Shown: positions 3,713 through 31,183, counted from the first letter of the stretch. The stretch: DNA of 38,731 nt from Candidatus Aminicenantes bacterium (GCA_030627155.1 DAOUSP010000001.1:1-38731), one strand, 5' to 3'. Notes: a model not told the origin generated them from the letters alone. Program-made: numbers and translations.

Positions 3713-3780
3713 GGCTAATGCCTCCTGCACCAGATTAAAACGGTTTTGCGTTTCATTAAGTTCTCTGCTATATTTTTTAC

Positions 3781-4356: not shown

Positions 4357-4361
4357 TATCT

Positions 4362-5846: not shown

Positions 5847-5861
5847 TTTACTTAAACCTCC

Positions 5862-7038: not shown

Positions 7039-7054
7039 TATGAGATTGTGGTAA

Positions 7055-8102: not shown

Positions 8103-8131
8103 ACTAATATAACATAAATATGGAGGACAAA

Positions 8132-8611: not shown

Positions 8612-8631
8612 ACTCACTCAAGGAGGACAAA

Positions 8632-8841: not shown

Positions 8842-8843
8842 CC

Positions 8844-10163: not shown

Positions 10164-10221
10164 AAAAAGGGAATTTGGGAAGAGACTCAATCTAATTAAA
10201 AAACATACTTGAAAGAGTGAC

Positions 10222-11121: not shown

Positions 11122-11202
11122 TTTTCAAAAATACCTTGTATTAGAAAAAATACTATCACGGAAAAATCAAAAAATCAATATAATGTTGGGTCTGAACATA
11201 AC

Positions 11203-12003
11203 TCATTCTCTCAGGAAAATCCATTCGGGGTTGTCATGCCTTTCCTTCAGAATTTTTTGGATCTCTTTACGCTCTTCCTCTGTAAATATTTTTGGTCTTA
11301 GTATGACTCCAAAATAATCTGACATCCCTTCAGTCAAGCATGCAACAACTTCATCAAAACCGACATCTCTTCCAAGTGCTTCTGAGAGGGACATCATGCG
11401 TATATTGTTACTATCAGGAGCCATGAAAGACACAGATTTCAGTATTTCCTCATTATTTTTCACTGGTATCGACCCATGTTGCAGAAACCTTTTTCCCATT
11501 CTTTTTTGAGCACTTCCAATGATTTTTTTTCCATTGATTTCTATCTCATTACGGGCAGGAAATGAAAAACAAGGAAGCGTTCCTCTTACATAAGAAGAAG
11601 GGGGAGTCTCTGCAAGATAAGGATGAAGCTCCATTTTCTCCAACCCGCACATCAGTGCCTCAGATATCATTTTGTAAGACTCCTGAAGTGTTGCTGTAAA
11701 CACCCTCTCATCTGACGAACATACAGAATATGTAACTTCTTCATGGTGAAGGACTAATTTCCCTCCAGTCAGCCGTCTGACAATATCAATGCCATTCGCA
11801 TTGCAAAACTCCACATCCACAACTTTGTGCAAACTCTGTGAATATCCAAGAGAAACCGTAGGCTTTTCCCACGCATAAAACCGCACATATGTGACTGGAT
11901 CGTCTCCAAGGGAATGAAATAGAAAGTCGTCCACAGCCATATTCCAGGAGCCTTTCAAGGGAATTGAATCAGTGATAAGATTCCATTCTTTGTTCTTTTG
12001 CAT
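11203..12003 (-). CDS. Lipoate-protein ligase / octanoyltransferase family protein (BPL_LplA_LipB domain)
   Basis: VRFYAWEKPTVSLGYSQ, RRLTGGKLVLHHEEVTYSV and INGKKIIGSAQKR blocks are present. I place the start at the ATG at 12003; the track start at 12009 is TTG. Confidence 0.75.
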   Translation of the reverse strand: MQKNKEWNLITDSIPLKGSWNMAVDDFLFHSLGDDPVTYVRFYAWEKPTVSLGYSQSLHKVVDVEFCNANGIDIVRRLTGGKLVLHHEEVTYSVCSSDERVFTATLQESYKMISEALMCGLEKMELHPYLAETPPSSYVRGTLPCFSFPARNEIEINGKKIIGSAQKRMGKRFLQHGSIPVKNNEEILKSVSFMAPDSNNIRMMSLSEALGRDVGFDEVVACLTEGMSDYFGVILRPKIFTEEERKEIQKILKERHDNPEWIFLRE

Positions 12004-13037: not shown

Positions 13038-14075
13038 ATGGAATATCGTCTCTTAGGGCGAACGGGAGTGAAAGTCTCTCCCATTTGTTTAGGAACGGAT
13101 TGTTTTGCTGACCCGCTACCGGAAAAGGAATGTGCTAAAATATTAAACAGGGCTGTTGAAGCCGGCATTAACCTTATTGACACTGGAGATTCATATGCAG
13201 AAGGTGAAGGCGAGCGTATCATCGGTCGGACGCTAAAGGAGAGCGGGATGCGCCATGCGGTATTGCTTGAGACGAAGTGTGACCATGGACGGCGCGTTCC
13301 TGGATTGACACTTGATGAATTCGTTCCAGAGGAGCTGCCAAATGAGCATGGTCCAACGCGTTTGAACATAATCCGAGCGTGTGAGGCGTCATTAAAGCGG
13401 TTTCAAACCGACTATATCGATATTTACCTGATGCATCGTCAAGATCTGGAGGTGCATATTGAAGAAACCCTGGGCGCATTGACTGATTTAGTTCGCCAGG
13501 GTAAGGTCCGATATGTTGGCTGCTCGACGCATCCGGCGTGGGCTGTAATGGAGGCCATCATGCTAAGTGAAATGAAAGGTTATGTGCGCTATTCGTTAGA
13601 ACAGCCGCCCTATAATCTTTTGGACCGACGCATCGAGAACGAATTGATTCCGATGGCACAGAAAACTGGTCTTGGAATCATCACCTGGTCTCCCCTGGCA
13701 ATGGGTGTTTTAGTCGGTGTTTATGAGAAAGAAAAAGATTTTCCTCCTGATTCGCGAGCTGCATTGCGTGGCGGATTTTATGCGGAGCGTGTGACGAATA
13801 AAGGTATCGAAGTAGGGAGTAAGTTTGTGAAATTGGCCAAAGAGGCCGGCATGACCCCGGCCCAGCTGGGGGTTCTGTGGTGCAAGGACCAGCCGGGCGT
13901 GACAGCTCCTTTGATTGGTCCTGAGAATCTGGAGCATCTTGAGGACCTGATCCCTGTCATGGGGATGACCCTGGACGATTCGTTGCGTGAAGCCTGTGAC
14001 AACCTAGTGCCTCCGGGGAGTGCTGTGGCTAATTTCCACAATACAGCCGGCTGGATGAAAGCACAGATTTTATAA
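13038..14075 (+). CDS. Aldo/keto reductase family oxidoreductase
   Basis: 345 aa with GGAGG upstream. MEYRLLGRTGVKVSPICLGT, INLIDTGDSYAEGEGERIIG, DYIDIYLMHRQD, GKVRYVGCST and WSPLAMGVL are all present. The DNA is visibly more GC-rich than its neighbours. Confidence 0.9.
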   Translation: MEYRLLGRTGVKVSPICLGTDCFADPLPEKECAKILNRAVEAGINLIDTGDSYAEGEGERIIGRTLKESGMRHAVLLETKCDHGRRVPGLTLDEFVPEELPNEHGPTRLNIIRACEASLKRFQTDYIDIYLMHRQDLEVHIEETLGALTDLVRQGKVRYVGCSTHPAWAVMEAIMLSEMKGYVRYSLEQPPYNLLDRRIENELIPMAQKTGLGIITWSPLAMGVLVGVYEKEKDFPPDSRAALRGGFYAERVTNKGIEVGSKFVKLAKEAGMTPAQLGVLWCKDQPGVTAPLIGPENLEHLEDLIPVMGMTLDDSLREACDNLVPPGSAVANFHNTAGWMKAQIL

Positions 14076-14302
14076 AGTGTGAGAAAGCGCACAATATTGA
14101 TCATGCCACCAAAGGATGTCTTTTTTAAAAAAATCTGGCATCTGGTGCATGACAATGGCATCAAACAGGTCATTCCAAAATTGATATCATAGACGTGAAA
14201 GACCAATGATGCAACCACAGAAAGTGGGATGTATAAAGTATACCCTAAATAAGAACCTAATGAATATATAGGAACACTGTTATATAAGGAGATATAACTA
14301 AA

Positions 14303-15196
14303 ATGAAAAAAGAAAAAAAATTAATCCCTCAAATTGATGGAGAGTGGTGGACTATTGCAGGCAACCCGGATCTTGGCCATTATAATACAGAAAAACAGCA
14401 ACCATTGGATTTTGGCATTTGGCAGGCAGCCGATAAAACCTGGCAGTTATGTTCTTGTATACGCAGGACCGGCTGTGGCGGGAGAGGCAGGTTGTTTTAT
14501 CGCTGGCAGGCAGATTTGCTAACAGATAAAAATTGGACTCCTAAGGGGATTTTCATGGAGGCAGATCCTAATTTCGGAGAAAGAATTGGAGGACTCCAGG
14601 CGCCATTTGTTCTTAATCACAGGAGTGAGTATTATATGTTTTATGGTGACTGGGTACATATTTGCATGGCCTGGAGCAGTGATGGAAAATCATTCGCCCG
14701 ACTTCTCAACCCTGATAATTTAAGCGGTCTCTTTACAGAAGGTCATCGCACAAGTACAAGGGATCCTATGGTTATGGCCTTTAGAAATAAATTTTATCTC
14801 TATTATACTGGAGTGCCGGAAGAAAAAGGAGCTATTTATTGTAGAACTTCAACTGATTTACATAACTGGGGAGATTCAGTAATTGTTTGCAGTGGTGGAA
14901 GTGGGGGCAGTGGACCTTCAGACGCTGAATGCCCATTTGTAATATATCTACCGGAAGAATATTCTTTTTATTTGTTCAGAGCAAATCCTTCAAAGCAAAA
15001 TGGCGAGTATGAAACATCTGTCTATTGTTCAAGCGATCCTCTAAATTTTGGAATTGATGATGATCAGTATAAGATTTGCACTTTGCCTGTAGAGGTTGCC
15101 AGAATTATTCAACATGACAGGCAATTTTACATTGCCGCGCTTAAACCTGATTATACGGGAATGAGAATGGCACGATTAAAATGGGTGCAGGCTTAA
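14303..15196 (+). CDS. Five-bladed beta-propeller glycoside-hydrolase-like protein (GH43/32-clan-like); no signal peptide
   Basis: 297 aa with AAGGAG upstream. The blocks RDPMVMAFRNKFYLYYTG and ECPFVIYLPEEYSFYLF are typical of this fold. The family assignment is tentative. Confidence 0.45.
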   Translation: MKKEKKLIPQIDGEWWTIAGNPDLGHYNTEKQQPLDFGIWQAADKTWQLCSCIRRTGCGGRGRLFYRWQADLLTDKNWTPKGIFMEADPNFGERIGGLQAPFVLNHRSEYYMFYGDWVHICMAWSSDGKSFARLLNPDNLSGLFTEGHRTSTRDPMVMAFRNKFYLYYTGVPEEKGAIYCRTSTDLHNWGDSVIVCSGGSGGSGPSDAECPFVIYLPEEYSFYLFRANPSKQNGEYETSVYCSSDPLNFGIDDDQYKICTLPVEVARIIQHDRQFYIAALKPDYTGMRMARLKWVQA

Positions 15197-15342
15197 GATT
15201 ACCAACGAAACTTTTATAAAAAAATTAATCAAAATTTTCAGAATCAATCCAGCATTGACGTATTTAAGGTTTTTACTTAAGTATACATTATTGCGAGGAA
15301 GCTCTAATCACAAACTATTTCAATAGCTTCTTCATCTCGTCA

Positions 15343-16302
15343 TCATAGCCCGTCATCTCCCACCGGATTAGAGACATAGGAATCATCTGTATTCAAATAA
15401 TCCTGAGTCGTAAAAATCTCCTCCTCTCTGAGGAATTTACTGGCGTGATCAAGTGATTCCCTGACACTCTTCTTGTATTCCTCCTGGGATGAAACCGGCT
15501 TGAGCGGGGGGAGATTTCGGTTTCTGTTTTCCTCTAATTTCAGAAACGTTATAACACGATTGTCTTCATGTGCCACGATGTCCCGACATTGCTCCCAAGT
15601 ATAAGGAAACAGATGAACATTCTTGAGCCACCAATTGTAATTCTCCTTTCCTACTCCGGCGGGGGCTGTCATCTTGTGCTTGTTCTCTTCAAGCCATTTA
15701 GCATAGTCTTCCACAGCTTCCTGAGCTTGCGTGGCATTTGCTGCCAAATCCGTATGATACTTGGCAAGCCAATTTGCAAGTTTATGGTACTCTTCACTCT
15801 CCTCCTTTGCACTCCAAATAGCCATGATTGCAAAATCTTTTGCGCCTTCGGTCAGATTTTGCTTGGCCCGTTCGTATATCTCAGGAATAGCCTTTAGCTG
15901 TTTCCTTAATTCATCAATCTTATCCTCCGGGAGAGGTAGACTTTCAGGAATCCGAAGAGTGATGTGAATTACAGGTCCTGCTCCTCCTTGGGAAGGAAGA
16001 TAAAAACAGGGGTCTCGGGACCAGGGCCGGAGAACTCGATGCTAAAATTCCAGTCCATTCATCTCTGCACGTACGAGATGATAATCGACTTGCTCGGATA
16101 CCGGCCAGGTGTTTATATCTATGGATGCAAGACGATCTTGAAATTTTTTGAGCCCGCGTTTCTGTTCTTCCATTGCAGCGGCTGTAAAATCGGGTACTCC
16201 GTCAACAACCGCAGGTTTTATGAAATCACGAAACTCCTCAAATAAACTAACAAGGTCGGAATAATCACCATTCGATTTTTTCAGTTTATATCTTTTTTCC
16301 AT
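15343..16302 (-). pseudogene. DUF885-family gene with one in-frame TAG and a missing C-terminal half
   Basis: ORFs 16042..16302 and 15343..15825 are in the same frame and are joined by open sequence (HRVLRPWSRDPCFY...EIYERAKQNLTEGAKDFAIM). The only interruption is the TAG at 16042-16044. The total is about 319 codons against a remembered family length of about 550, and no continuation exists below 15343 in any frame. Confidence 0.55.
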
Positions 16303-17808: not shown

Positions 17809-19707
17809 CTAATCTTTTTTCTCTTGAATTATTGGCAAAATCATATGGGAAGGAAATTTTCCTGAATGATGGATTGTATTCTCAGCAATACTCCATTCAG
17901 TTTCATCATAATTATTGCCTCCGGTGTTCAGGTTTCGTTCGAACAAAGGAAAATCGCTGCTGGACACTTGCACGCGGATTCTATGTCCCTTTTTAAAGTA
18001 ATTGCTGGTAGCATCCAGATCTATCTGAATCTTATACACCCCTCCCTTTTTCATCCAGACTTTCTTTGTGAACCCTTCTCGATATCTTGCACGTAGAATC
18101 CCCTGTTGTATATTGTAAGCTGTACCATCGGGATACACATCCACAAGTTTAGCAGTGAAATCTGTATCTTTCGCTGATGAAGATACATAAAGGACAGCTG
18201 TTATTGGACCTGTTAATTCAATGCCTTCCTCTAATTCCGGTGTTGTGTAAACCAAAACATCATTACGAATTTCAACTTTAGCTTGATCAATAGCCCCAGC
18301 CGGAGTTCCATATGAGGTGCCACGCTGACCTCCTACAGAAGGGACCGGATTACCCGGATCATAGATAAACTTATCGGAAGGCTCATTCTCTGGCATCTCT
18401 GTCGATAGCCATCCATTTCCATTACGGCTATTCGCATTCCCTTCGCTATGGAGATAATATTTTGTGTATTGAGTCTCCGGCAACGGCCAAACTTCTGCTG
18501 AATGCCATTCATTACGTCCCATCACATAATACTGAACTTTAGGCATATTCGTAATTCCGTTTTCTTCTCCCTTTAACCAGTAATCAAACCACTTGAGAAA
18601 AATTTCCCTATAGTTTAGCCTTGCATCTCCTATATCACGATCACCGACAATTGTGTGTTCTGTGGCCCTCTCGAAGCTGCAATGCGTTGTGGGTGCAATA
18701 ATCACAAACTGATTGTTACGAGCAGTCTCAGAAACGGCATTTTCCCTAAAATAATTGAATTCAAAAAGAGTTTCTTCAACACTCGGGTCATACCAGGTAC
18801 TCATATGGAGCGCCGGTACATCGATTTTTTCCGTACCATCATAATATCCCATTGTATCGTGCCACCATGGATCACCAAAATCTCGTGTTACCAATTCAAC
18901 CCAATCATTGGGAGGTGCACCCGCTTTTTTCATTACGTCAACAAGCGGTAAATACCAATTCAGTTTCTCGAAATCAACTTCCGGAAAATTACTCGGACCT
19001 GGCTCAAAAAATTCACGAATCTTACTAATCTCGGAATCTGATAGACCGGGCGGCGGCTTTAAAGAATACTTACAAGCAGCCTCAAAATACCATGATATAC
19101 TTGCAGCTAAATCAAGAACACCGCCTTTAAAACCAGACCAATATCTATAACGGTCATTGGCTGCACCAATCATTGGACCACACTGCGGTATCATGCAAGT
19201 AAGATTAGGATGTCTTAGGGGAGCTTGCGCGGCTTGAACTTCTGCTGGATAAGAACAGCCATAAGTGCCGATTTTGCCATTACTCCAGGGTTGTTTAGCA
19301 AGCCAATCTACCGTGTCATAGCCGTCCTCGGCCTCATGTCCTGCCGGTGGAGAATAAATGCCTTCGGATTCATATTTTCCCCGGCAGTCTTGTATGGCAA
19401 CGACAAAGCCATGAGAAGCAAACATATAAGCTTGTTCTCTCTTTTCTCGATCTCTATAACCTTTCTTATTATAAGGGGTTCGGATGAGAATAACTGGCAG
19501 CTTTTTTTCTTTATTTTTTGGAAAATAGAGGTCAGTCGATAATCTTATTCCATCTCTCATGGGAACCATGCGGCTTTCTTCCAAACGCACTTCATATTTA
19601 AGCTCAGACACATCTTGTTGCTTTACTGTAAGTGCAGAGCTTTGCGGCACAATAAAGAAAGAAAAAAAGATCAAAAATACCATCCAAAGCTTTATTTTTT
19701 TAAACAT
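17809..19707 (-). CDS. CocE/NonD-family hydrolase (peptidase S15, X-Pro dipeptidyl-peptidase-like), secreted
   Basis: 632 aa with a signal peptide. Diagnostic blocks are VPMRDGIRLSTDLYFP, PVILIRTPYNK, QDCRGKYESEG, DGYDTVDWLAKQPWSNGKIGTYGCSYPA and the C-terminal beta-sandwich region. Confidence 0.85.
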   Translation of the reverse strand: MFKKIKLWMVFLIFFSFFIVPQSSALTVKQQDVSELKYEVRLEESRMVPMRDGIRLSTDLYFPKNKEKKLPVILIRTPYNKKGYRDREKREQAYMFASHGFVVAIQDCRGKYESEGIYSPPAGHEAEDGYDTVDWLAKQPWSNGKIGTYGCSYPAEVQAAQAPLRHPNLTCMIPQCGPMIGAANDRYRYWSGFKGGVLDLAASISWYFEAACKYSLKPPPGLSDSEISKIREFFEPGPSNFPEVDFEKLNWYLPLVDVMKKAGAPPNDWVELVTRDFGDPWWHDTMGYYDGTEKIDVPALHMSTWYDPSVEETLFEFNYFRENAVSETARNNQFVIIAPTTHCSFERATEHTIVGDRDIGDARLNYREIFLKWFDYWLKGEENGITNMPKVQYYVMGRNEWHSAEVWPLPETQYTKYYLHSEGNANSRNGNGWLSTEMPENEPSDKFIYDPGNPVPSVGGQRGTSYGTPAGAIDQAKVEIRNDVLVYTTPELEEGIELTGPITAVLYVSSSAKDTDFTAKLVDVYPDGTAYNIQQGILRARYREGFTKKVWMKKGGVYKIQIDLDATSNYFKKGHRIRVQVSSSDFPLFERNLNTGGNNYDETEWSIAENTIHHSGKFPSHMILPIIQEKKD

Positions 19708-19747: not shown

Positions 19748-21142
19748 TTATTTAATTATACGAATCTCCTGGGGCGGTGGATAGAAATACTCGACTCCAC
19801 GTTCAGTGACAATCGCACCGTCATGTAATTGTATAGATAAATATTTCCCTTCACCCCATTCAGGCATCGGCACATAGACCCAGTATTCAAAGTAGAAGTG
19901 GTGATTAAGGGGAAGTATCATATCCCGTTGCCAATCCGGACCTAAAGGACCGATCCTGGGGGCATAAATTCCTGCTCCTGCGGCATGTAAGTCGAGAGGA
20001 ACCTGGGTCTTTTCAGGATCCAGTTCTTTGTTATATATTTGTCTATTTACATAAATAAACCCAGCTTCTTCAATTTTTCGTTTGAGGATTTCAAATGTTT
20101 CACCAGCGGTACGCCCCACTTTGATGTTGTCTTCTAAAATTTCACGGACTTTCATTACATCTGCCCAGGCTTTTTTGATCTTTGGAGGCAGTTCGGTCTC
20201 TCCTTCACGAAGCACATAGCCGTATTCAAACGTGACCTCATAGAAGTTCCCGAACTTCCACTCGGGATGCATATGGCCGCCGCTTTGTCGACCACCTGCC
20301 AGACAAATCAGGTCGCCTCTCTGGAACACATAGTCACCTCTTCTTCTATTTCCGTTCTTATCCACTACAGAACGACTACTTTCAAGATCGCTGAATTTGG
20401 TTACTCCTGGCGCGATTTTATCAAAATCTCTCACTAAAGATTCTGCGATCATTTTACGCATTTTCTTAAATAGTACAATTTCGCTCTTCACTGGTCTCGA
20501 CAAGTAATCTGTTATAAGATATTCAGCAGAGACTATTCTCTTCGCATATTTATCACCGAGAGCTTTGACCAATAGGTTGTAGTCAGTATGCGAAATGCCG
20601 TCGGATCGTAACCTTGGAATCTCATACTCCACGGGAGATCCCAGCTTTTCCAGGTAATTTACACCGATACGTTTGGGGTCGCGTTCAGCAACAAATTCTC
20701 CGATGCCCTCAAATCGGTAATCCAATTCTGTTTTTGGGCCTCCCGGCCATTCGGCCCCTACCGTTTTATAGAATTCTCCTAAAGGAATCCTGGATTCTGG
20801 TTTAGCAATTATATCGTAGGCTCCGCATTCTCGAACCAAATCCGAACTGTAATCGAAAACCACCCGTTCGATCCTGTCACCGCCGCGGTCAGTGAAGATG
20901 AAAATCCCGGAGTTACTTCCCAAGTTACATGCAATGGGATCAGTATTTCCTTCTCTCATGACTTGAATCCACATGTCGATATTGTTCTCCCGCATGACTT
21001 GAGGCAGGATGAGGTCAAACTTGTCCCGGCGAATCTGATTCATCAAGTCCTCTGTAGCATCTGGTTCTTGATCCTGGGCATGGAAACCCTTGACAAGGAT
21101 GAGGATAGAAAATAACATCAGAAAAACCCGAAATTTTTTCAT
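19748..21142 (-). CDS. Secreted M24 (pita-bread fold) peptidase-like protein with a non-canonical metal-ligand set
   Basis: ATG at 21142 with GGAGG 7 nt upstream; the track start at 21160 is less likely. It has a signal peptide (MKKFRVFLMLFSILILVKGFHAQ). The blocks GDLICLAGG, YEVTFEY, LDLHAAGAG, FYFEYWVYVP and IQLHDGAIVTERGVEYF are collinear with PepP/PepQ. Confidence 0.6.
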   Translation of the reverse strand: MKKFRVFLMLFSILILVKGFHAQDQEPDATEDLMNQIRRDKFDLILPQVMRENNIDMWIQVMREGNTDPIACNLGSNSGIFIFTDRGGDRIERVVFDYSSDLVRECGAYDIIAKPESRIPLGEFYKTVGAEWPGGPKTELDYRFEGIGEFVAERDPKRIGVNYLEKLGSPVEYEIPRLRSDGISHTDYNLLVKALGDKYAKRIVSAEYLITDYLSRPVKSEIVLFKKMRKMIAESLVRDFDKIAPGVTKFSDLESSRSVVDKNGNRRRGDYVFQRGDLICLAGGRQSGGHMHPEWKFGNFYEVTFEYGYVLREGETELPPKIKKAWADVMKVREILEDNIKVGRTAGETFEILKRKIEEAGFIYVNRQIYNKELDPEKTQVPLDLHAAGAGIYAPRIGPLGPDWQRDMILPLNHHFYFEYWVYVPMPEWGEGKYLSIQLHDGAIVTERGVEYFYPPPQEIRIIK

Positions 21143-21181
21143 TAATATGCCTCCTCTCATTTAATTGATATCATTATTGGG

Positions 21182-23890
21182 TCATTGTTGATCCTTTATC
21201 CAATAATCCTTCAAAACCAAAACTTTCTTCTTCAAGATTTCGTCACCAGCAGTAAGCATAATCGTATATATCCCTGGCCGTACACGTGTATATTTGTAAT
21301 TGGGATCTGTCTCCCAATTATGGATGTGACGCCTGGTCATAAGAGATTGTCCGTTGATTCCAACCTCTGTATTTTCGCTCCCATACCATTCTAGTTGGTC
21401 ATAGTAATCGAAATATTCCTGGCCCCATTCTGCCTCTGAATCATAGGGAATTCCTCTCGTTTCTTTAAACATTTCTTTTTCTTCTGCGGTCCGCTTTCTT
21501 TTCCATGTAAATGGCCAAATAACACGGTTCAAACCAGGATTATTAGGACCAATTATTTCCTGTAGTATTCTGGCTCCATCATAGACTGTAATTTTAACAT
21601 CACCCTTAACCTTATTTTTCAAATAATAATTGACGACAACTCCCCGTGGCTCATTTTCACCAGCAAAATTTTGAGCACTTCGTGTATACTGACTGATTAT
21701 TTTCCACTGAACCCGTGGTTCAATATCAAAAAGATGGACATTTTTGGTTAAAACTTCAGTATTTAATTCTTGAAGGGGAGAGATATCGGTAATATAAAAC
21801 CCTCTTCCATGCGTTCCAACCACGAGATCGTTTTCACGAGGGTGTATAACCAAATCATAAATAGGAATTGTAGGCATATTGTTCTTCATCTTGGTCCAGT
21901 TTTGGCCTCCATCGATGGTGACATAAACAGCCCGATCAGTCCCGACAAAAAGTAAATTTGGATTCTTATGATCTTCGCGAATGACATTGATTGGTTCCTC
22001 AGGCAGATTATTGGCTATCGAGTTCCAGCTTTCACCAAAATCATTTGTTTTATAGACAAAAGGCCTAAAATCATCACTCCTTAATCCTGATAAAGTAACA
22101 TAAGCAGTTTCAGCATAATGATGAGATGTGATAACCCTGGTTACCCAGTATCCAGGATTATCTGCAATACGCTCATTCAACTTTTTCCAATTAGCACCGC
22201 TATCTTTGCTGATCCAGAGATTTCCATCATCCGTGCCCGCCCAGAGTATACCTTGTTTAACAGGAGATTCAGCTATAGTGGTGATAGTTCCTACTTCTCT
22301 ACGTGGTCGATGCTTCCGTTCTGTGTTGGACAAATCAGGACTTATTTCCTGCCAGCATTCGCCCCGATGCATGGACCGAAGAAGGACATTAGCCCCGTGA
22401 TAAATGACTTTGCTGTTATGAGGTGAAATAAGGATAGGAGCGTTGAAATTAAAGCGGATATTGGAGTTACCACGGTATCTAAGTCTCTTTTTAGTTCCCT
22501 CTTTTTGATCAAATCTGACAATACCACCATTTTGGGTTTCAACGTAGAGCCAACGGCTGTCGCTCGGATCTGCCTGGCAGGATAACCCATCAGCGGTCCC
22601 CACGTGAGACCAGTCCTCAAATCGTATAGGAACATACCCCTTATTGGTGCTCGGACCCTTCCACGTTCCAAAATCTTGCATACCGCCATAGACATTATAA
22701 GGATACTCCATATCAACGCAGATTGCATATAACTGTGCTAATGGCAGTTCATCAGCATGATACCAGTGAAGGCCATCATCATGGGTCATGGCAAATCCAT
22801 AATCATAGCCTGCCAGTATGTTGTTACTGTCTTCAGGGTTGATCCATAATGCATGCCAATCACCACCCCAACGCCAAGCTCTGTCCCATGTTTTACCTCC
22901 ATCTGTAGATTTGTCCATTTGAGCTTGAAAATTGTAAATAATTTCAGGATTATTAGGATCAATCCTTATCTGACCAAAGAATGATCCTCCGCGAATAGCC
23001 TGACCAACCCTTTGCCAGGATTCTCCGCCATCCTCAATCCGGTATATTCCTATACTACGCTTGGGTTCAACAATTGTTGCATACAGGATTTGTGGATTTC
23101 TGAGGTAGATGTCGATACCAATTCTGCCAAGCTTTCCTTCAGGAAGTCCATTGGTAAGCTTTTTCCAGGATTTGCCAGCATCTGAGGATTTGTAGATACC
23201 GCTTCCTTCCCCTTCCTGCCTGTCCCACATAGCTGCATAAAGTATATCTGGGTTAGCAGGATCCATTGCCAGGTCGACTGCTCCGACATATTTACAGTTA
23301 TCCATAACTTCAAGAGATTTTATCCAGGTCTTTCCACCGTTAGTGGTTTTATATACTCCTCTTTCAGTGTTATCGGAAAATCCATGCCCCAAGGCCGCCA
23401 CATAGACAATATCTGGATTTTCAGGATGAATCCTTATTCGTCCGATATAGCGAGAATCTTTTAATCCCATATGTGCCCAGGTTTTTCCTCCATCTGTGGA
23501 TTTATATGCTCCATCTCCATACAATTCGGCAACGTTGGCTTCACCCGTTCCAACCCAGACGATATCAGGGTCAGACCATGACACTTCAACATCACCTGGA
23601 GCAATTGAATTTTCATTATCGAAAATTGGTTCAAATGAGTTGCCATAATTCACAGTTTTCCAGAGCCCACCTGTAGCAGCAACATAAAAGGTATAGGGCT
23701 GCTTTTTCCAATCAGGCACAGCAATATCGATAATTCTCCCTCCCTGTCTCGTAGGCCCAATCGACCGATAATTGAAAAGCTTCAAAAAATCCTCAGAAAA
23801 TTCTTGTCCGAACGCATCTGGAATAGAAAATAAAATAAAAAAAAGAAAAACAATAAGCAAACTACAAAATGGTTTAAATTTTCTCTTCAT
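21182..23890 (-). CDS. BNR/Asp-box repeat beta-propeller protein (sortilin/VPS10-like 'glycosyl hydrolase'), secreted
   Basis: 902 aa with a signal peptide. There are about nine Asp-boxes: STDGGKTW (x2), TTNGGKTW, SSDAGKSW, EDGGESW, THDDGLHW, SKDSGANW, TNDFGESW and TIDGGQNW. Confidence 0.8.
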   Translation of the reverse strand: MKRKFKPFCSLLIVFLFFILFSIPDAFGQEFSEDFLKLFNYRSIGPTRQGGRIIDIAVPDWKKQPYTFYVAATGGLWKTVNYGNSFEPIFDNENSIAPGDVEVSWSDPDIVWVGTGEANVAELYGDGAYKSTDGGKTWAHMGLKDSRYIGRIRIHPENPDIVYVAALGHGFSDNTERGVYKTTNGGKTWIKSLEVMDNCKYVGAVDLAMDPANPDILYAAMWDRQEGEGSGIYKSSDAGKSWKKLTNGLPEGKLGRIGIDIYLRNPQILYATIVEPKRSIGIYRIEDGGESWQRVGQAIRGGSFFGQIRIDPNNPEIIYNFQAQMDKSTDGGKTWDRAWRWGGDWHALWINPEDSNNILAGYDYGFAMTHDDGLHWYHADELPLAQLYAICVDMEYPYNVYGGMQDFGTWKGPSTNKGYVPIRFEDWSHVGTADGLSCQADPSDSRWLYVETQNGGIVRFDQKEGTKKRLRYRGNSNIRFNFNAPILISPHNSKVIYHGANVLLRSMHRGECWQEISPDLSNTERKHRPRREVGTITTIAESPVKQGILWAGTDDGNLWISKDSGANWKKLNERIADNPGYWVTRVITSHHYAETAYVTLSGLRSDDFRPFVYKTNDFGESWNSIANNLPEEPINVIREDHKNPNLLFVGTDRAVYVTIDGGQNWTKMKNNMPTIPIYDLVIHPRENDLVVGTHGRGFYITDISPLQELNTEVLTKNVHLFDIEPRVQWKIISQYTRSAQNFAGENEPRGVVVNYYLKNKVKGDVKITVYDGARILQEIIGPNNPGLNRVIWPFTWKRKRTAEEKEMFKETRGIPYDSEAEWGQEYFDYYDQLEWYGSENTEVGINGQSLMTRRHIHNWETDPNYKYTRVRPGIYTIMLTAGDEILKKKVLVLKDYWIKDQQ

Positions 23891-24584: not shown

Positions 24585-25046
24585 TTATTGCGATGAACCA
24601 AAATTATAAACTGCTGCTACGGTCACGTTCGCAATTTCTCTTACTTTATGAGCTACTACCTTCATCTTTATCTCACCCTTCCAGCCTCGGGCTGATAACA
24701 TCTCGTTCAGGCCTTTACTAATCTCCTCTTCACACTCTTTTTGGCCATATTCACCTCTTGATTCAATGAACAATCCTCCCTCCTTGGTTTGAACCCAGCC
24801 TAATCCAGCCGAGATTTGAGCATTTGGTTTATTACTACTAAAACTGGAAATTACAACATACAAGATATCACCAATTTTGCGAGAAGATTCATAGGTTTCA
24901 ACCTCAGATACTCTTGCATCCTGAGGAATTACCGAGCTTAAAGAGATTAGATTGAAATTGTGAATTCCTGCTTTTAGCAGAGCTTTGTCAAAAGAACTTA
25001 TTAAAGTTTTTCCTTCACTTTTTCCCCAGACTATTTTAATTTCCAT
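24585..25046 (-). CDS. pdaD: Pyruvoyl-dependent arginine decarboxylase
   Basis: About 153 aa. EGKTLISSFDKALLKAGIHNFNLISLSSVIP contains the Ser-Ser self-cleavage site. AAGGAG lies 10 nt before the ATG at 25046; the track start at 25055 sits too close to the SD. Confidence 0.85.
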   Translation of the reverse strand: MEIKIVWGKSEGKTLISSFDKALLKAGIHNFNLISLSSVIPQDARVSEVETYESSRKIGDILYVVISSFSSNKPNAQISAGLGWVQTKEGGLFIESRGEYGQKECEEEISKGLNEMLSARGWKGEIKMKVVAHKVREIANVTVAAVYNFGSSQ

Positions 25047-25258
25047 TATTAGCATGCTCCTTTTTTAATTCTTTCATTTCTTCCTTAATCTTTTTAATAT
25101 TATATTGAAACAACAATTTTGCTACCTTAAATTATTCTTTATTTGATCTTCATCTATCAATTTTTTCCTAATGCTTATAGCAGACTCCAGATTTTCTGTC
25201 AATCAGAAGTAGTACTTATTTTTTTTTAACGTTTTCCAATTTTTTCTTTTTACTCACC

Positions 25259-25287
25259 TTGCATAATTAGAAGTCCTGTGCTATACA
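25259..25287 (+). promoter_or_regulatory. Candidate sigma-70 promoter for the P-loop/OTC transcription unit
   Basis: TTGCAT (25259-25264), a 17-nt spacer, then TATACA (25282-25287) preceded by TGc (extended -10). It lies 52 nt upstream of the ATG at 25340. Confidence 0.35.
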
Positions 25288-25339
25288 ATGGTTTTTAAAA
25301 ATATTTGAATAAAGATCGATCAAAAAAGGAGATGCAGTC

Positions 25340-26644
25340 ATGAAAAAAGTCATCATTATGGGAGCAGCTGGAAGAGATTTCCACAATTTTAATGTTCATT
25401 TTAAAGACAAAGAAGAATTTTACGTTGTTGCCTTCACAGCTACCCAGATTCCGGACATTGAAGACAGAAAGTATCCTTCTCTTCTTTCAGGAAAACTATA
25501 TCCAGATGGAATTCCGATTTATCCTGAAAAAGAACTCATCTCTCTCATCAAAAAACACGGAGTTGATGAGGTTTGTTTTTCTTACAGCGATGTTCCTCAC
25601 GAGTATGTAATGCATAAAGCTTCTGAGGTTCTTGCAGCTGGAGCAACATTTATCCTTTTAGGACCAGATGAGACGATGCTCAAAAGTAAGCTGCCTGTGG
25701 TTTCCGTAGGTGCAGTCAGAACCGGCTGTGGAAAAAGCCAAACAAGTAGAAAAATAGCCCTGATTCTTAAAAATAAGGGAAAAAGAGTAGTAGTAATTCG
25801 TCACCCTATGCCCTACGGAGATCTTGTAAAACAAAAAGTACAGCGTTTTGCGCACTATGAAGACCTGGCCAAGTACGAATGCACCATCGAAGAGAGAGAA
25901 GAGTATGAACCTCATATTGCTAACGGAATCGTTGTTTATGCCGGAGTAGATTACAAGGCCATTCTGGAAGAGGCAGAAAAAGAAGCAGATGTAATTCTCT
26001 GGGACGGAGGAAATAACGATTTTTCTTTCTACAAACCTGACTTAGATATTGTCGTTGTTGATCCTCATCGTCCTGGCCACGAACTCCTATATCATCCTGG
26101 TGAGACCAATTTCAGGAAAGCTCATGTGCTTGTTATCAACAAAATTGATACTGCTGCTAAGGAAAATATCGATCTTATCCTTGATAATATTAAAAAAGTA
26201 AATCCAGAAGCAAAAATAATCCGTGCGAACTCTCCGATATTCGTTACTGACGAAAAAGAAATAGCTAACAAAAAGGTTTTAGTCATCGAAGATGGACCGA
26301 CTTTAACCCACGGAGAAATGGCTTACGGAGCTGGAGTCGTTGCAGCCAATAAGTATGGTGCTAAAAAAATAATAGACCCAAGACCCTTTGCTGTGGGAAG
26401 TATTAAGAAAACATTCGAGAAATTCACTCATTTAGATAAAGTCCTTCCAGCTATGGGTTATGGAGAGGCACAGATTGCTGAACTCACTCAGACTATCAAT
26501 AATAGCGATTGTGACCTTGTCATCAGCGGTACTCCTATTGATATCAACAGAGTAATTAAAACAAACAAGAAAATCCTCAACGTCCGCTATGAAATCGAGG
26601 AAATTGGCTCTCCTAATCTGGAAGAAGTTCTCGAAGATTTCTGA
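25340..26644 (+). CDS. Uncharacterised P-loop NTPase (a family I recall being annotated 'GTPase' or 'cyclic 2,3-diphosphoglycerate synthetase-like')
   Basis: 434 aa with AAGGAG upstream. It has an N-terminal Rossmann-like IIMGAAGRDFHNFN, a Walker-A-like VGAVRTGCGKSQTS and a Walker-B-like ADVILWDGGNNDF. The product name is from memory only. Confidence 0.5.
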   Translation: MKKVIIMGAAGRDFHNFNVHFKDKEEFYVVAFTATQIPDIEDRKYPSLLSGKLYPDGIPIYPEKELISLIKKHGVDEVCFSYSDVPHEYVMHKASEVLAAGATFILLGPDETMLKSKLPVVSVGAVRTGCGKSQTSRKIALILKNKGKRVVVIRHPMPYGDLVKQKVQRFAHYEDLAKYECTIEEREEYEPHIANGIVVYAGVDYKAILEEAEKEADVILWDGGNNDFSFYKPDLDIVVVDPHRPGHELLYHPGETNFRKAHVLVINKIDTAAKENIDLILDNIKKVNPEAKIIRANSPIFVTDEKEIANKKVLVIEDGPTLTHGEMAYGAGVVAANKYGAKKIIDPRPFAVGSIKKTFEKFTHLDKVLPAMGYGEAQIAELTQTINNSDCDLVISGTPIDINRVIKTNKKILNVRYEIEEIGSPNLEEVLEDF

Positions 26645-26679
26645 TAAAGAGAAATATTGCACTCATTATATTAATGCAG

Positions 26680-26712
26680 TTGAAATTATTCTATTACATA
26701 GAATAATTTCAA
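26680..26712. promoter_or_regulatory. Perfect 15-3-15 palindrome between the P-loop gene and the OTC gene
   Basis: TTGAAATTATTCTAT tac ATAGAATAATTTCAA. It lies 36 nt after the P-loop stop and 55 nt before the OTC ATG. Confidence 0.6.
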
Positions 26713-26766
26713 TTTAAAAAAAGTGCCTTTCTGAGTCGAGAAGACATGTGAAATAGGAGGAGAAAA

Positions 26767-27768
26767 ATGGCTTACAACTTGAAAAATCGGAATTTTTTGA
26801 AGTTATTGGATTTTACTCCAAAAGAAATTAATTTTCTATTGAACCTTTCTTCTGATCTGAAAAAAGCAAAATATGCAGGAATAGAGCAACCGAGATTAAA
26901 GGGTAAAAATATCGTTTTAATTTTTGAAAAAGAGTCAACTAGAACTAGATGTGCCTTTGAGACAGCAGCTTTTGATCAAGGAGCAAGGGTAACCTATCTC
27001 GCTCCGACAGGTTCTCAGATAGGGAAAAAGGAATCAATGAAAGACACTGCCAGGGTGTTAGGTAGAATGTATGATGGTATTGAATACCGTGGTTTTGGAC
27101 AAGAAATAGTCGAAGAATTAGGCAAGCATGCTGGAGTTCCTGTATGGAACGGCCTTACAAATGAATTTCATCCAACACAAGTTCTATCTGATTTATTGAC
27201 TATGATGGAACATTCTAACAAGCCTTTGAACGAAGTCAAATTTGCTTACTTGGGAGATGCAAGGAATAATATGGGTAATTCACTATTAATAGGCGCCGCA
27301 AAAATGGGCATGGATTTTCGTTCTGTTGCGCCTAAAAGTGTTCAGCCTAACGAGAAACTTTTCAACCAAGCTAAAAAGATAGCGGAGGAAACAGGAGCAA
27401 AGGTATTAGTAACTGACGATTTGAAAAAAGGTGTCAAAGACTGTGATTTTCTCTGTACAGATGTCTGGGTCTCAATGGGAGAACCAGAGACAGTCTGGAA
27501 AGAAAGGATTGAGTTACTAAAACCTTATCAGCTGAATAAGGAAGCTATGGAAATGACAGAAAATCCTCAAGTAAAATTTATGCATTGTTTACCCGCATTT
27601 CATAATCGCGAAACTATCATCGGTGAAGATATTTATCAGAAGTTTGGTCTGGCTGCTATGGAAGTTACCGAGGATGTTTTTGAATCGGAAGCTTCTATTG
27701 TTTTTGATGAAGCTGAAAATAGAGTTCATACAATAAAAGCAATAATGGTTGCCACTTTAGGATGCTAA
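26767..27768 (+). CDS. argF: Ornithine carbamoyltransferase (anabolic ArgF or catabolic ArcB; the direction cannot be read from the sequence)
   Basis: 333 aa with GGAGGAG upstream. [26 protein letters not shown] and FMHCLPAFH are present. The C-terminus [35 protein letters not shown] is nearly collinear with E. coli ArgI. Confidence 0.9.
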
Positions 27769-27819
27769 ATTTTCCAAAATAAAAAATAGGCATACCTTGA
27801 ATTTAATTTCATTTTCTTT

Positions 27820-28108
27820 TTATTTCCACTTCATCCTTTTTATATACTCTCTCACAATAATGGTGGTTCCTCTACTACCCTTAACTGCAGAGCTAGCAGA
27901 AAACAGGGATTCGATAATGCTTTTTCGAGATTCTAATTGGCCTTGGGGAAGGGACGCCTTTTCTCCATCTTCGGTTGCTGTCTTCTTTCATCACAAAAGT
28001 AATAACTGGGAAATCAAGACTATTTTTCTTTAATTCATTTTGCATCTTTTGTTGAACGAAATACCCTATTAATCCTTGTGACTTAGCTAAACAGGCATCA
28101 AGAGGCAT
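27820..28108 (-). pseudogene. arcC: Carbamate kinase (arcC) relic with an internal deletion, a frameshift and truncation
   Basis: The reverse strand gives MPLDACLAKSQGLIGYFVQQKMQNELKKNSLDFPVITFV, against the carbamate kinase (CK) block [28 protein letters not shown]. It jumps directly to KEDSNRRWRKGVPSPRPI, against the CK block KEDAGRGWRKVVPSPKPI; about 40 residues are missing between them. A frame change then gives ESRKSIIESLFSA... and a stop at 27820-27822. Confidence 0.6.
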
Positions 28109-28180
28109 AGGAGGATATGATCTGTTCTACGTCACTTTTATCTAAAATTTGTTTTTCCAACGCCATTTTTTCATCTCTCA

Positions 28181-28272
28181 TCCGGAAAATGGGTCAATTC
28201 TATTTTTTCGCAGATAGCTCACTTCGCATATTAGTTATCATACGATTTCAAAGAATGACCCATTTTACCGGA
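28181..28272. repeat. Inverted repeat of about 20 nt separated by a 50-nt spacer
   Basis: Left arm tccggaaaatgggtcaattct (28181-28201) and right arm agaatgacccattttaccgga (28252-28272) give 19 paired positions with two 1-nt bulges. The repeat lies 26 nt downstream of the amidinotransferase stop, between that gene and the arcC relic. Confidence 0.6.
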
Positions 28273-28297
28273 TAAATTTTTATCTTACTCGCACTTG

Positions 28298-29458
28298 TTA
28301 ATAACCCGGAATTTGTTTCGGGAAATAATCTTCACAGGCGCCCTCTCGATACACATCCAGCGTGGTGCAATGCAGGGCGCCACCAAACGGAATCACCGCT
28401 TCATACGGAACTGGAATTACCTCAAATCCAAGCTTGTCTAACTGCTCTATGTAAGCCGTCTCGTGCGCTTCCACACAGACCGTGTTCGGCCCAAGCGAGA
28501 AGGTATTCATTGAAATCCAGGAGGTGCCCTCATATAGCCCGGTCAGATAGCACTTGTTTTTATGCACGTACATTGGCTTTGCCGCTGGGATAAGTTCCCA
28601 GTCGTTCATCTTTAACAACTTTACTGCTTCCTCCGTGATAGGATGCCATTCCGGATTGTAGACTGCCAGTCCTGGCCGCAGTGGCAACAGATTTACGTCG
28701 ATGTGCCACGGGTGATAATTATTGTCAAACAACACTGGGTGAATACGGATTCCCTTCGCCCCAAAGTAGCGCTTCAACCAGTCCATTCCGCTCCGGTTCG
28801 TCACGACCGAGCACTGCCAGAAAATGTCCTTCCCAAACCTTGCTGCATCTGCTGCATCCCAAAGCGGCTCCTTTTCTGTCAGTTGGAACTTCCACTCGTG
28901 CAGCCGCTTCCGCTTCTCTTCATCCGACCAGACGTTTTCGAAGTAGTAGTAAAAGTTCTTCTCGTAGGATTCGTCCGTTAACCGCGGCTTCGGTGCTGCT
29001 GTCCACAGAAACTCCGGATCCTCCTTGAAGTACTGCTCAAAGAGCGGCCGTAAATTCAGATACTCGTACCACCGCGAGCGGCGGCAGGTCGTAGCTTCCA
29101 TAATCTCGTTCCCAACTGGAAGGAATACGTCACGGACGTTGTTGACCCCGTGCTGGTTCAGCTGCGTCCAATCCGGTGTCGAGACAGCTCGCCGGTCATG
29201 CATCGCAGGGTGAATCACAACTCGATCTACGATGATGCCCCGCTTTTCCATCATCTTCACAAAATTGTCCATTTGCTCGTTGGCCTTATCATACATCTCC
29301 TGCGGGAATGGCCCGAACGATCCCAACGGATACCCACCTTCAGGACGGTGATACCACCAAGCTGGCTCTGGAGCAGGAATATTCGTGCCCTCTGGTCTTC
29401 CCACAATTACACGCTTCAACGGGTCCCACTCATTCCAGGAATTTACAATTTTAGCCAT
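28298..29458 (-). CDS. Amidinotransferase (glycine/inosamine amidinotransferase family, GME superfamily); acceptor unknown
   Basis: 386 aa with GGAGGA upstream. It is collinear by eye with human AGAT: NEWDPLKRVIVGR, GNEIMEATTCRRSRWYEY, TAAPKP, WDAADAARFGKDIF (Asp), PWHIDVN (His) and GGALHCTTLDV (Cys). GC content is much higher than in the flanks. Confidence 0.85.
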   Translation of the reverse strand: MAKIVNSWNEWDPLKRVIVGRPEGTNIPAPEPAWWYHRPEGGYPLGSFGPFPQEMYDKANEQMDNFVKMMEKRGIIVDRVVIHPAMHDRRAVSTPDWTQLNQHGVNNVRDVFLPVGNEIMEATTCRRSRWYEYLNLRPLFEQYFKEDPEFLWTAAPKPRLTDESYEKNFYYYFENVWSDEEKRKRLHEWKFQLTEKEPLWDAADAARFGKDIFWQCSVVTNRSGMDWLKRYFGAKGIRIHPVLFDNNYHPWHIDVNLLPLRPGLAVYNPEWHPITEEAVKLLKMNDWELIPAAKPMYVHKNKCYLTGLYEGTSWISMNTFSLGPNTVCVEAHETAYIEQLDKLGFEVIPVPYEAVIPFGGALHCTTLDVYREGACEDYFPKQIPGY

Positions 29459-29908
29459 TTCAATATCCTCCTAAATTAATTTTAATTTTTTAAATAAATT
29501 TATATACTTTGCTACTTGATATATTGTCAAGGTGTATCTTTATTACAATTTTATAATTGCTCATTTTTAATTTTTCTTCGACCATCTCTTGTACAATAGG
29601 AATCGTCATATTATTTCTTTCCTGCATGACTTATTGGAGCATTTTTTTGATTGCAACGAAAACTATTTATCTCTATAATATAATATCCTAAAATATTTAA
29701 TATATTTTAGCGATTATAATAACATTTTACAACTAAATTGCCAATAAAATTAAAATATATTTAATTTAATGACAATATTCTTGAATAGAGAGGTAGCTTA
29801 ATAACAATATAGATATCTCTTGCTTGACATAATAAGTAAAATGTTTAAACCTTTTTTTCTAAATAAATCAAAGATTAAAATATAAAATACACTCAAAGGA
29901 GAATAATT

Positions 29909-31183
29909 ATGATTGAACAAATGGAAAAAGGCATGTTTTCTTCATCTTTGTCAGAAGAAACAAGAATGAGATTTTTATATGTCGATTGGGACCCTTATAC
30001 AGGCAAGCGTATATATTTAGAAGCATGTGGCGGTTCCCTACGGCTTAAATCAGTTATGGACACTGTGGCCAAGGAATCGGCTTTACCTGATGAACTATAC
30101 AGATACAACCCCGCATCTGACCATGTAGTAGAAGCTGTTGAAAAAGGAATAGATGATGTCAAGATTTTTCTTGGGGCAAAATCAGGAGAAATCATACCCG
30201 CTCACAGTGCTACCCAAACAATGTTTCGTGTCATAGGCGCTGTTACTTCAAATATTCCTGGAACAAATATTGTTACGACTGAGCTCGAGCATCCTGCTTT
30301 ATTGGGTGCCACCAAATATTTTGCTGAGAGCACCAAAAAAGAATTGCGAGTTGCAAAGATTTCTAAAGAAACAAGCTCTATCCCTCCAGAAGCAATCCTT
30401 GAAAAAATCGACAAAAATACGTGTATTCTCGCTTTCCAGCATGGTTCTAATCAAACAGGGGCTATAAATGACGTAAAAACCATAATTAAAGAGGCAAGAA
30501 AAATAAAGCCTGACCTCTACGTCTTAATCGATGCAGTTCAATATGCACCACATTGCCCAATAGACGTTGAAGAATATGGTGCCGATGCCTATTCCTTCGG
30601 TCTTTATAAGGCTTATTGTGTTAAGGGAATTGGCTTTTCTTACATTTCAGATAGGCTTGCGAAACTCCCACATGATAAACTATACGGCAAACCAGATACG
30701 AACTGGGATTTGGGCTCTCCCGCTCATATGATGTATGCTTCTTGGTCAACTGTTGTTGATTATCTTTGCTGGCTGGGTAGTCATTTCACAAAGTCTACTG
30801 ATAGACGAACACTAATTGTTGAAGCGAAAAAAGCTATACATGCCCATATGAAGGCTCTTCTAAATAGAGCCATGCATGGTACAGATAAAATTGAAGGTCT
30901 GCGCGATATGAAACATGTTATAACCTGTGGGATGAAAGATGAAATAGGAAATCGTCTATGCGTATTTTTGTTCCGCCTTAAGGATATAGATTCTTCCACA
31001 GCTATAGGACGTTACAACCGTGAATATGGTATTCGTCTTGCTGCTAGAATCAAGGATGCATACTCAACTGTCGCCTTGAACGCCCTTGGCTGGCCAGATG
31101 CTGTCCGGCTGTCAGCAGCTCATTACAATACACCTCAAGAGATCGATCTTTTCCTCCAAGCTACTAAAGCACTTGGGAGTTAA
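29909..31183 (+). CDS. Aminotransferase class-V-fold PLP-dependent enzyme (NifS/MOCOS-N-like); specificity unknown
   Basis: 424 aa with AAGGAG upstream. The blocks are SATQTMFRVIG, TTELEHPALL, HGSNQTGAINDV, LIDAVQYAPHCPIDVEEYGADAYSFGLYKAY (putative PLP-Lys in LYK) and GIGFSYI. Confidence 0.7.
   Translation: MIEQMEKGMFSSSLSEETRMRFLYVDWDPYTGKRIYLEACGGSLRLKSVMDTVAKESALPDELYRYNPASDHVVEAVEKGIDDVKIFLGAKSGEIIPAHSATQTMFRVIGAVTSNIPGTNIVTTELEHPALLGATKYFAESTKKELRVAKISKETSSIPPEAILEKIDKNTCILAFQHGSNQTGAINDVKTIIKEARKIKPDLYVLIDAVQYAPHCPIDVEEYGADAYSFGLYKAYCVKGIGFSYISDRLAKLPHDKLYGKPDTNWDLGSPAHMMYASWSTVVDYLCWLGSHFTKSTDRRTLIVEAKKAIHAHMKALLNRAMHGTDKIEGLRDMKHVITCGMKDEIGNRLCVFLFRLKDIDSSTAIGRYNREYGIRLAARIKDAYSTVALNALGWPDAVRLSAAHYNTPQEIDLFLQATKALGS

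Follow-up and report, generated by a model that had tools for sequence, protein, structure and literature searches.

What does an amidinotransferase do beside a set of arginine genes whose carbamate kinase has decayed? The question is raised by a stretch of 38,731 nucleotides from a Candidatus Aminicenantes bacterium (GCA_030627155.1 DAOUSP010000001.1:1-38731; the whole stretch is called the window hereafter), in which an earlier note, made from the sequence alone, had described a rewired arginine node at positions 24585-31183. The six features of that node, an arginine decarboxylase (pdaD), an orphan P-loop NTPase, an ornithine carbamoyltransferase (OTC), a dead carbamate kinase, an acquired amidinotransferase (AMT) and a class-V pyridoxal phosphate (PLP) enzyme, were all located there by open reading frame (ORF) listing and profile searches (Table 1), and the strand layout was borne out, down to the exact 450 bp (GC 0.21) of the divergent region between the AMT and the PLP enzyme genes. 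We give a probability of about one half to the reading that this region derives by partial collapse from a widely conserved cluster, in which the arginine synthetase (ArcE) pathway is joined to an AMT of the L-arginine:glycine amidinotransferase (AGAT) family with its usual importer. The arcE-arcB pair (arcB encoding the OTC) and the AMT gene are intact at this locus, and pyrR, arcC, pyrB and pyrI are reduced to about 530 bp of fragments.

Conserved neighbourhood of the amidinotransferase

A scan of one genome per species gave 77 AMT loci (76 non-redundant; numbered with the prefix L), onto which the proteins of the window and gene families built de novo were mapped, the families being annotated afterwards. 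The 76 loci come from at least six phyla (Acidobacteriota/Aminicenantes, Desulfobacterota, Chloroflexota, Bacillota, Actinomycetota, Spirochaetota, Bacteroidota). The AMT gene was accompanied by arcE at 42 of the 76 loci, by a gene for an SSF-family Na+/solute symporter at 36, by arcC at 35 and by arcB at 33; among the 34 loci having at least 4 kb on both sides, the corresponding numbers were 22, 18, 19 and 23. arcE was the directly upstream gene on the same strand in 28 loci, the SSF symporter gene was directly downstream in 28 loci, and the AMT gene occurred together with arcE plus arcB or arcC at 36 related loci. The comparison of synteny with the OTC, P-loop and carbamate kinase genes that the earlier note had proposed was therefore positive across these phyla, and a functional tie of the AMT to the three enzymes is supported by their gene order.

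The arrangement differs between groups. The typical order is OTC>CK>ArcE>AMT>SSF in Desulfobacterota (CK, carbamate kinase) and ArcE>AMT>SSF>CK in Dehalococcoidia; two metagenome-assembled genomes (MAGs; L046, L052) show AMT>PyrR>CK>ArcE>HAD>OTC, and the close relatives of the window OAT<AMT>ArcE>OTC (OAT, ornithine aminotransferase). Identities between phyla are unusually high (AMT 65-89%, ArcE 54-63%, OTC 69-83%), suggesting that the block spreads as a unit. Recurrent neighbours were a rocD-type ornithine aminotransferase and an agmatinase, and sigma-54 enhancer-binding, Lrp-type and TetR-type regulators were found upstream of clusters. A HAD-IIA hydrolase gene was also noticed in or beside the cluster at 18 related loci (e.g. 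L046 14477, L052 14474, L028 3477), often between arcE and arcB; its TIGR01458 score of 155 bits is below the cut-off.

Three unrelated types of importer adjoin the AMT gene: the SSF symporter, a TauC/SsuA-type ABC importer (directly beside it in L007, L009 and L014) and a TRAP DctPQM system (directly beside it in L005 and L013). PDB relatives of the TRAP and ABC binding proteins were consulted for a clue to the ligand and gave generic DctP and SsuA-like matches only. Several genomes carry two to four AMT copies, each with its own transporter (L003/L012, L014/L055, L022, L064, L070); the delta-proteobacterial MAG of L014/L055 holds four copies, two of them next to an arcE-arcC-arcB set and the other two next to importers. 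AMT-SSF pairs also stand alone, one of them behind a TetR regulator gene, and only unrelated genes (UPF0182, GGDEF/PAS, MreB) were found downstream of these pairs.

The P-loop protein

Arginine synthetase was described only in 2024, as TK2200/ArcE of Thermococcus kodakarensis (Michimori et al. 2024, PMC11032458). TK2200, earlier a hypothetical protein or putative GTPase, shows little similarity to cyclic 2,3-diphosphoglycerate synthetase (CPGS) and is structurally similar to LpxK (4EHY); the gene is often found near arcB or arcC and has largely replaced arcA, and the family, placed in Thermoproteota, goes by names such as 'GTPase' and 'cyclic 2,3-DPG synthase' (PMC11032458). The P-loop protein of the window is not the orphan that the earlier note took it for, since it fits this family of ATP-forming replacements of arginine deiminase (PMC11032458). 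Its nearest homologs (97%) are from Candidatus Aminicenantes, and the family counts thousands of members, including a full-length Thermoproteota protein of 47% identity; the homologs are named 'GTPase', 'predicted GTPase' or 'cyclic 2,3-diphosphoglycerate synthase'. Sequence searches gave weak matches only, to CPGS (E 0.0018) and to LpxK, indicating that the protein is not a CPGS ortholog. The AlphaFold2 (AF2) model (pLDDT 93.6) retrieved CPGS 8oru first in Foldseek (E 1.5e-17), followed by Aquifex LpxK 4ehx and 4ehy (about 1e-9), so that the fold is related to CPGS and LpxK (4EHY) as in ArcE. The genomic position is also that of ArcE: arcB starts 122 bp downstream and arcA is absent from the window. 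Judged by the published description of TK2200, the P-loop protein is most likely an arginine synthetase.

A protein of the representative library (P0244, 766 aa) has a carbamate kinase (residues 5-308) fused to an ArcE-like domain (328-757), which is a Rosetta-stone link between carbamate kinase and the putative ArcE-like enzyme. The arcE-arcB pair is also found without an amidinotransferase gene within 10 kb (L081, in the complete Aminicenantes genome CP070750). At that locus, a PAD_porph (agmatine deiminase-like) gene, encoding another guanidino-group enzyme, lies 2.4 kb upstream of the pair (6319-7638).

These results change the interpretation of the layout. The earlier note had seen the AMT as the occupant of the arcA slot in an arcA-arcB-arcC locus; the slot is taken by the ArcE-like P-loop protein instead. 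The locus is not an arginine deiminase (arcABC) locus: arcB is present, arcA absent and arcC reduced to fragments with deletions and a frame shift, and neither arcA nor arcD nor further arginine genes were found in the 38.7-kb window.

The amidinotransferase

No Pfam family matched the AMT, even at E 0.01. Its PDB matches were SxtG 6u1r (2.6e-59), AGAT 1jdx/1jdw (about 3e-51 to 4e-51), HsvA (2e-48) and StrB1 (1e-42); the SxtG, AGAT and HsvA alignments cover residues 5-379, and that of StrB1 comes in two stretches. The claim of an intact Cys/His/Asp triad was confirmed: D110, D201/D204, H252, D254 and C364 do not vary among 86 family sequences and align with their counterparts in AGAT and SxtG (in AGAT numbering, the catalytic and guanidino-binding residues C407, H303, D254, D170 and D305). 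The AMT clade shares 35% identity with AGAT and 40% with SxtG, compared to 46% between AGAT and SxtG, which places it outside the characterised group, and by identity the AMT groups with none of the characterised clades. The AGAT residues R322, N300, M302 and S355, which we take to be substrate-binding, correspond to W271, H249, W251 and T312 of the AMT (K in most members at T312). Neither these pocket residues nor orthology agree with AGAT proper (EC 2.1.4.1), the annotation given by JGI.

The family had 2106 matches, of which the best 120 are all at least 70% identical. In public records the clade goes by 'glycine amidinotransferase' or, erroneously, by 'serine/threonine protein kinase'; the second name, carried by many NCBI MAG records, looks like a propagated misannotation. 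Compared to relatives, the nonsynonymous divergence (dN) of the AMT gene was 0.07-0.10 with the synonymous divergence (dS) saturated, indicating purifying selection (this figure leaves out the L082 gene, whose alignment was implausible, at 58% identity compared to 82% by tblastn).

The GC content at third codon positions (GC3) was 0.62 in the AMT gene, compared to 0.30-0.33 in the ArcE, OTC and PLP enzyme genes of the window. The L082 AMT gene (10662-11846) showed the same contrast (0.64, compared to 0.28-0.41 in its neighbours), and most of the 76 loci deviated in the same direction. The bias is family-wide and not specific to this genome; a recent acquisition inferred from GC3 was rejected, as the oddity does not by itself show such an event. 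Either high expression or repeated transfer could have caused the bias.

Another view of the AMT, which we consider very doubtful, is that the enzyme is no transferase in vivo: it could hydrolyse the amidino-enzyme intermediate or deiminate its substrate (arginine to ornithine and urea, or another guanidino substrate), with a link to the pathway only via the shared arginine and ornithine. A cyanobacterial 'amidinotransferase' prediction is on record (PMC2242806). Full-length similarity of the AMT was found to true transferases only, no conserved urease or urea-handling genes lie nearby in the related loci, and hydrolysis to urea would forfeit the ATP gained through ArcE and carbamate kinase. 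What speaks for a hydrolase is that the superfamily contains both hydrolases and transferases working on the same Cys-His-Asp chemistry, that the presumed substrate-binding residues of AGAT are replaced, and that the cyanobacterial prediction was reportedly reassigned later to arginine dihydrolase.

Decay of the operon

The 529 bp between the OTC and AMT genes (27769-28297, minus strand) contain the relic that had been called a dead carbamate kinase. arcC is indeed dead, but the relic is composite, including also an N-terminal fragment of pyrR and a C-terminal fragment of pyrI. A 71-aa ORF (27893-28108) matches residues 77-116 and 151-170 of the carbamate kinase 1e19 (E 4.7e-10), and comparison with the intact L013 carbamate kinase resolved three arcC pieces: residues about 83-122 (28114-27998); residues about 161-186 (27997-27917), in frame with the first piece after a 38-residue deletion; and the final 21 residues (27921-27859), in a different frame. 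The relic is identical in an independent Logan assembly (L002), indicating that it is no assembly artefact; the window sequence is also present on a JGI metagenome contig, and part of it on an independent Logan contig. The pyrR remnant, detected with PyrR of L050 and L013, is weak alone and is supported by its position, the intact order AMT>pyrR>arcC being found in L006, L013, L046, L052 and L053. The pyrI remnant aligns with residues 138-153 of L013 PyrI (81% identity) and reads YKKDEVEIKRK*, compared to YGKDEVEIKGK* in L082 PyrI. In L013, arcC is followed by pyrB and, further downstream, by pyrI, and the TRAP transporter (DctPQM) precedes the AMT gene.

Table 1 Features of the arginine locus in the 38,731-nt window, with coordinates, strand and the evidence for each.
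Feature	Position	Strand	Evidence
pdaD	24585-25055	-	PF01862, 113 bits
arcE-like P-loop gene, 434 aa	25340-26644	+	family profile, fold, arcB neighbour
15+3+15 palindrome in the arcE-arcB spacer	26680-26712		perfect 33-nt inverted repeat
arcB/argF, OTC	26767-27768	+	NF003286, 578 bits; PF00185, PF02729
pyrI remnant, final 16 codons and stop	27809-27859	-	tblastn, E 4.9e-4
arcC relic, three pieces	27859-28120	-	E 5e-23 compared to L013 carbamate kinase
pyrR remnant, N-terminal 16-23 residues	28104-28172	-	tblastn, E 0.007-0.04
AGAT-family amidinotransferase (AMT), intact	28298-29458	-	SxtG/AGAT matches, catalytic residues
AT-rich divergent intergenic region, 450 bp	29459-29908		GC 0.21
Class-V (fold type I) PLP enzyme	29909-31183	+	PF00266, 129 bits

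A second damaged copy was found in L082 (Logan DRR122314 contig, 3464-11846), whose ArcE is 88% identical to that of the window and whose convergent layout is the same with other breakpoints: a fusion joins PyrR residues 8-68 with carbamate kinase residues 233-322, all but 43 residues of arcB are gone and the HAD gene is truncated, with arcE, the AMT gene, pyrB and pyrI intact. As the breakpoints differ, pyrR and arcC were lost at least twice in this lineage; the AMT gene and arcE stayed intact through both losses. Further away, an aldo-keto reductase gene located between pyrB and pyrI in L013 is 81% identical to window 13038-14075, and the adjacent gene for a 297-aa GH43-like protein, likewise between pyrB and pyrI in L013 (both within 14012-15968), is 63% identical to its counterpart. 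The two genes lie in the window (13038-15196) 13-15 kb from the AMT gene and in a relative orientation different from that of L013, indicating local rearrangement around the former pyr operon.

Such losses would be expected if the locus of this genome were a decaying remnant without a coherent pathway, the AMT gene, arcE and arcB being kept for unrelated reasons; arcE-arcB would then supply carbamoyl phosphate from arginine for pyrimidines, as in Thermococcus, and the transferase would have a role of its own. The deletion of pyrR, arcC, pyrB and pyrI, the independent loss in L082 of pyrR, arcC and most of arcB, and the L081 pair with no amidinotransferase gene within 10 kb are all in agreement with this, as is the finding that in T. 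kodakarensis ArcE and ArcB also supply carbamoyl phosphate for pyrimidines, arcC being dispensable there (PMC13260591, 2026). We nevertheless hold it improbable: the AMT is intact, its dN is low and none of its catalytic residues has been lost, and the synteny across phyla shows that these genes work together elsewhere.

The proposed ornithine carrier pathway

ArcE uses L-arginine only and refuses agmatine and guanidine (PMC11032458), so that other guanidino compounds would need an amidino transfer step; this strictness, together with the pairing of AMT and importer, makes a feeder module the simplest reading. We see an even chance that such a module works as follows. A guanidino compound, probably an acid (guanidinoacetate, guanidinopropionate, guanidinobutyrate or taurocyamine), would be imported, and the AMT would move its amidino group onto ornithine, giving arginine; ArcE would convert arginine, ADP and Pi to citrulline, NH3 and ATP; the OTC would phosphorolyse citrulline to ornithine and carbamoyl phosphate; and carbamate kinase, where present, would form a second ATP, or the carbamoyl phosphate would enter pyrimidine synthesis. 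The yield would be up to 2 ATP per amidino group, and ornithine, being regenerated, would act as a carrier. It is the importers that make an acid probable: TRAP DctP systems and PutP/PanF-like symporters are carriers of carboxylates or sulfonates. The wider proposal, that anaerobes of many phyla ferment the amidino group through a dedicated importer, AMT and ArcE/OTC/carbamate kinase to 2 NH3, CO2 and, by substrate-level phosphorylation, 2 ATP, much as if a urea cycle ran backwards to yield energy, we rate at somewhat below even odds.

The earlier note had proposed the opposite, an arginine-driven synthesis of a guanidino metabolite. In its fuller form, the OTC and ArcE would build arginine from ornithine, NH3 and ATP, with carbamoyl phosphate from carbamate kinase or another source, and the AMT would amidinate an imported amine or amino acid, regenerating ornithine in a urea-cycle-like loop. 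This synthesis is possible, but we regard it as unlikely, because the conserved partners point the other way: importers, the two predicted ATP-yielding enzymes (ArcE, carbamate kinase), regulators of the sigma-54, TetR and Lrp types and rocD are what a catabolic cluster typically contains. Carbamate kinase in arcB-arcC clusters normally marks catabolism, as in the arginine deiminase and agmatine deiminase pathways; the loop would cost energy-limited anaerobes at least 2 ATP per product, and no conserved exporter, tailoring enzyme or methyltransferase was found in the related loci. The adjacent importers could equally supply the acceptor of a biosynthetic reaction, and all characterised relatives (AGAT, SxtG, StrB1, HsvA) run, to our knowledge, from arginine to the acceptor.

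Several of the observations count against the catabolic ornithine carrier as well. The donor and acceptor chemistry of the AMT is proposed from genes, and the amidinotransferase reaction is reversible, so that gene order cannot fix its direction. The residues of AGAT that presumably bind the substrate are replaced, and the P-loop protein is equated with TK2200 by description and fold. ArcE itself works near equilibrium, can run towards arginine and supports arginine synthesis in vivo (PMC11032458). The argB, GNAT and pyr genes near some clusters would suit a role in biosynthesis or in the supply of carbamoyl phosphate just as well. In 7 complete clusters the search for a guanidine riboswitch or any other came up empty, and no conserved gene for handling the de-amidinated product was found. 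Finally, with arcC dead and no importer in the 38.7-kb window, the full cycle, in either direction, is not encoded by this locus alone.

Other genes and signals of the window

The OTC score is above the NF003286 cut-off of 515. The 122-bp spacer between arcE and arcB holds a perfect 33-nt palindrome, TTGAAATTATTCTAT-TAC-ATAGAATAATTTCAA, a candidate operator or AU-rich hairpin; no further copy of its half-site was found in the window. A search for inverted repeats flanking a possible arcE-arcB rearrangement gave nothing convincing. The 450-bp divergent region matched no Rfam family, and promoter-like sites in it were no commoner than in shuffled sequence; a terminator scan likewise gave no more sites than shuffled sequence did. 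The sole RNA gene of the window encodes tRNA-Gly, and no riboswitch or other RNA clue to a ligand was present in the window.

Two of the six features of the node proved to be neighbours. The pdaD product has the PvlArgDC domain over its whole length (PF01862, residues 6-150), its TIGR00286 score of 93 bits being below the cut-off of 107. In the 76 related loci pdaD had a single weak match (L036), and it was rejected as a cluster member: it is a neighbour that uses arginine, and the presence of agmatinase near five clusters, set against this one match, leaves its tie to the arginine node a loose one. The PLP enzyme reached 136 bits with TIGR01976 (cut-off 352), stayed far below the cut-offs of the SufS, IscS and NifS models, and gave distant cysteine desulfurase matches only (at most 74 bits in the PDB); it does not qualify as a cysteine desulfurase, and at the sequence level only the general Aminotran_5 fold is supported. 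It was likewise rejected as a pathway member and as a conserved partner of the AMT, having a tblastn match in one of the 76 loci, 8 kb from the AMT gene, and being absent from the other 75.

The rest of the window encodes peptidases, envelope proteins, ECF sigma factors and UvrBC. A 470-aa secreted protein without a Pfam match (19748-21160, minus strand) was recognised by profile search as a divergent M24 'pita-bread' Xaa-Pro peptidase-like protein (PDB 1pv9, E 6e-7), and an S15 X-Pro dipeptidyl peptidase gene (17809-19707) adjoins it; in Aminicenantes, this M24-like family forms tandem arrays of as many as five paralogs immediately downstream of AMT copies (L003 11218-18340, L004 4484-11673). 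The ORF at 21182-23890, encoding a 902-aa BNR/sortilin-repeat protein, corresponds to two genes (307 and 578 aa) on the JGI contig (L001 15570-18277; 99.7% identity), reflecting either a frameshift difference between the assemblies or a sequencing error.

Comparison with known systems

The earlier note knew of no described pathway that combines these parts, and this agrees with full-text literature searches and a recent review of guanidine metabolism, in which none was found. In the library searched by full text, no paper connected an amidinotransferase to arginine synthetase, to carbamate kinase or to the catabolism of guanidino compounds, and the ArcE papers (PMC11032458, PMC13260591) do not mention a coupling to an AMT or importer. 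The arcE-arcB(-arcC) core belongs to a pathway known since 2024, and its coupling to an AGAT-family enzyme and importer was found in none of these sources. If our reading is true, the arginine synthetase pathway is extended from arginine to a class of guanidino compounds (candidates are guanidinoacetate, guanidinobutyrate, taurocyamine and creatine-related compounds), providing a new substrate-level source of ATP and a route of nitrogen release for subsurface anaerobes (Dehalococcoidia, Desulfobacterota, Aminicenantes, Anaerolineae). It would also be the first catabolic role of an AGAT-family enzyme that we know of.

The closest known system is the ArcE-ArcB-ArcC pathway, with which the locus shares a P-loop protein of CPGS/LpxK-like fold encoded next to arcB, the presence of arcC in relatives and the absence of arcA. 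The described pathway can also supply carbamoyl phosphate to pyrimidine synthesis, and in relatives arcC stands in one operon with pyrR, pyrB and pyrI. The conserved cluster differs from that pathway, as described, by the addition of an amidinotransferase and a dedicated importer, and at the window locus, by contrast with T. kodakarensis, arcC survives only as a relic, the organism is bacterial (Aminicenantes) and the ArcE is a putative one. In the arginine deiminase pathway (arcABC, arcD), the genes are also clustered, and the OTC and carbamate kinase likewise gain ATP from the carbamoyl part of arginine; the cluster presented here has no arcA-type deiminase and no arcD antiporter, and its first step, if catalysed by ArcE, would yield an extra ATP.

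The AMT shares its fold and its Cys-His-Asp set with AGAT, SxtG, StrB1 and HsvA, and arginine/ornithine is its likely co-substrate pair. It stands outside the AGAT-SxtG pair, has W, H and W in place of R322, N300 and M302, and is accompanied by energy-metabolism genes and importers, and not by creatine, toxin or antibiotic genes; its proposed physiological direction would be the reverse of theirs. A precedent for gaining ATP from a guanidino compound other than arginine is the agmatine deiminase pathway (AguA, putrescine carbamoyltransferase, carbamate kinase). That pathway deiminates its substrate directly and has its own carbamoyltransferase, whereas the AMT cluster would first load the amidino group, from whichever donor, onto ornithine and could then rely on the usual arginine enzymes.

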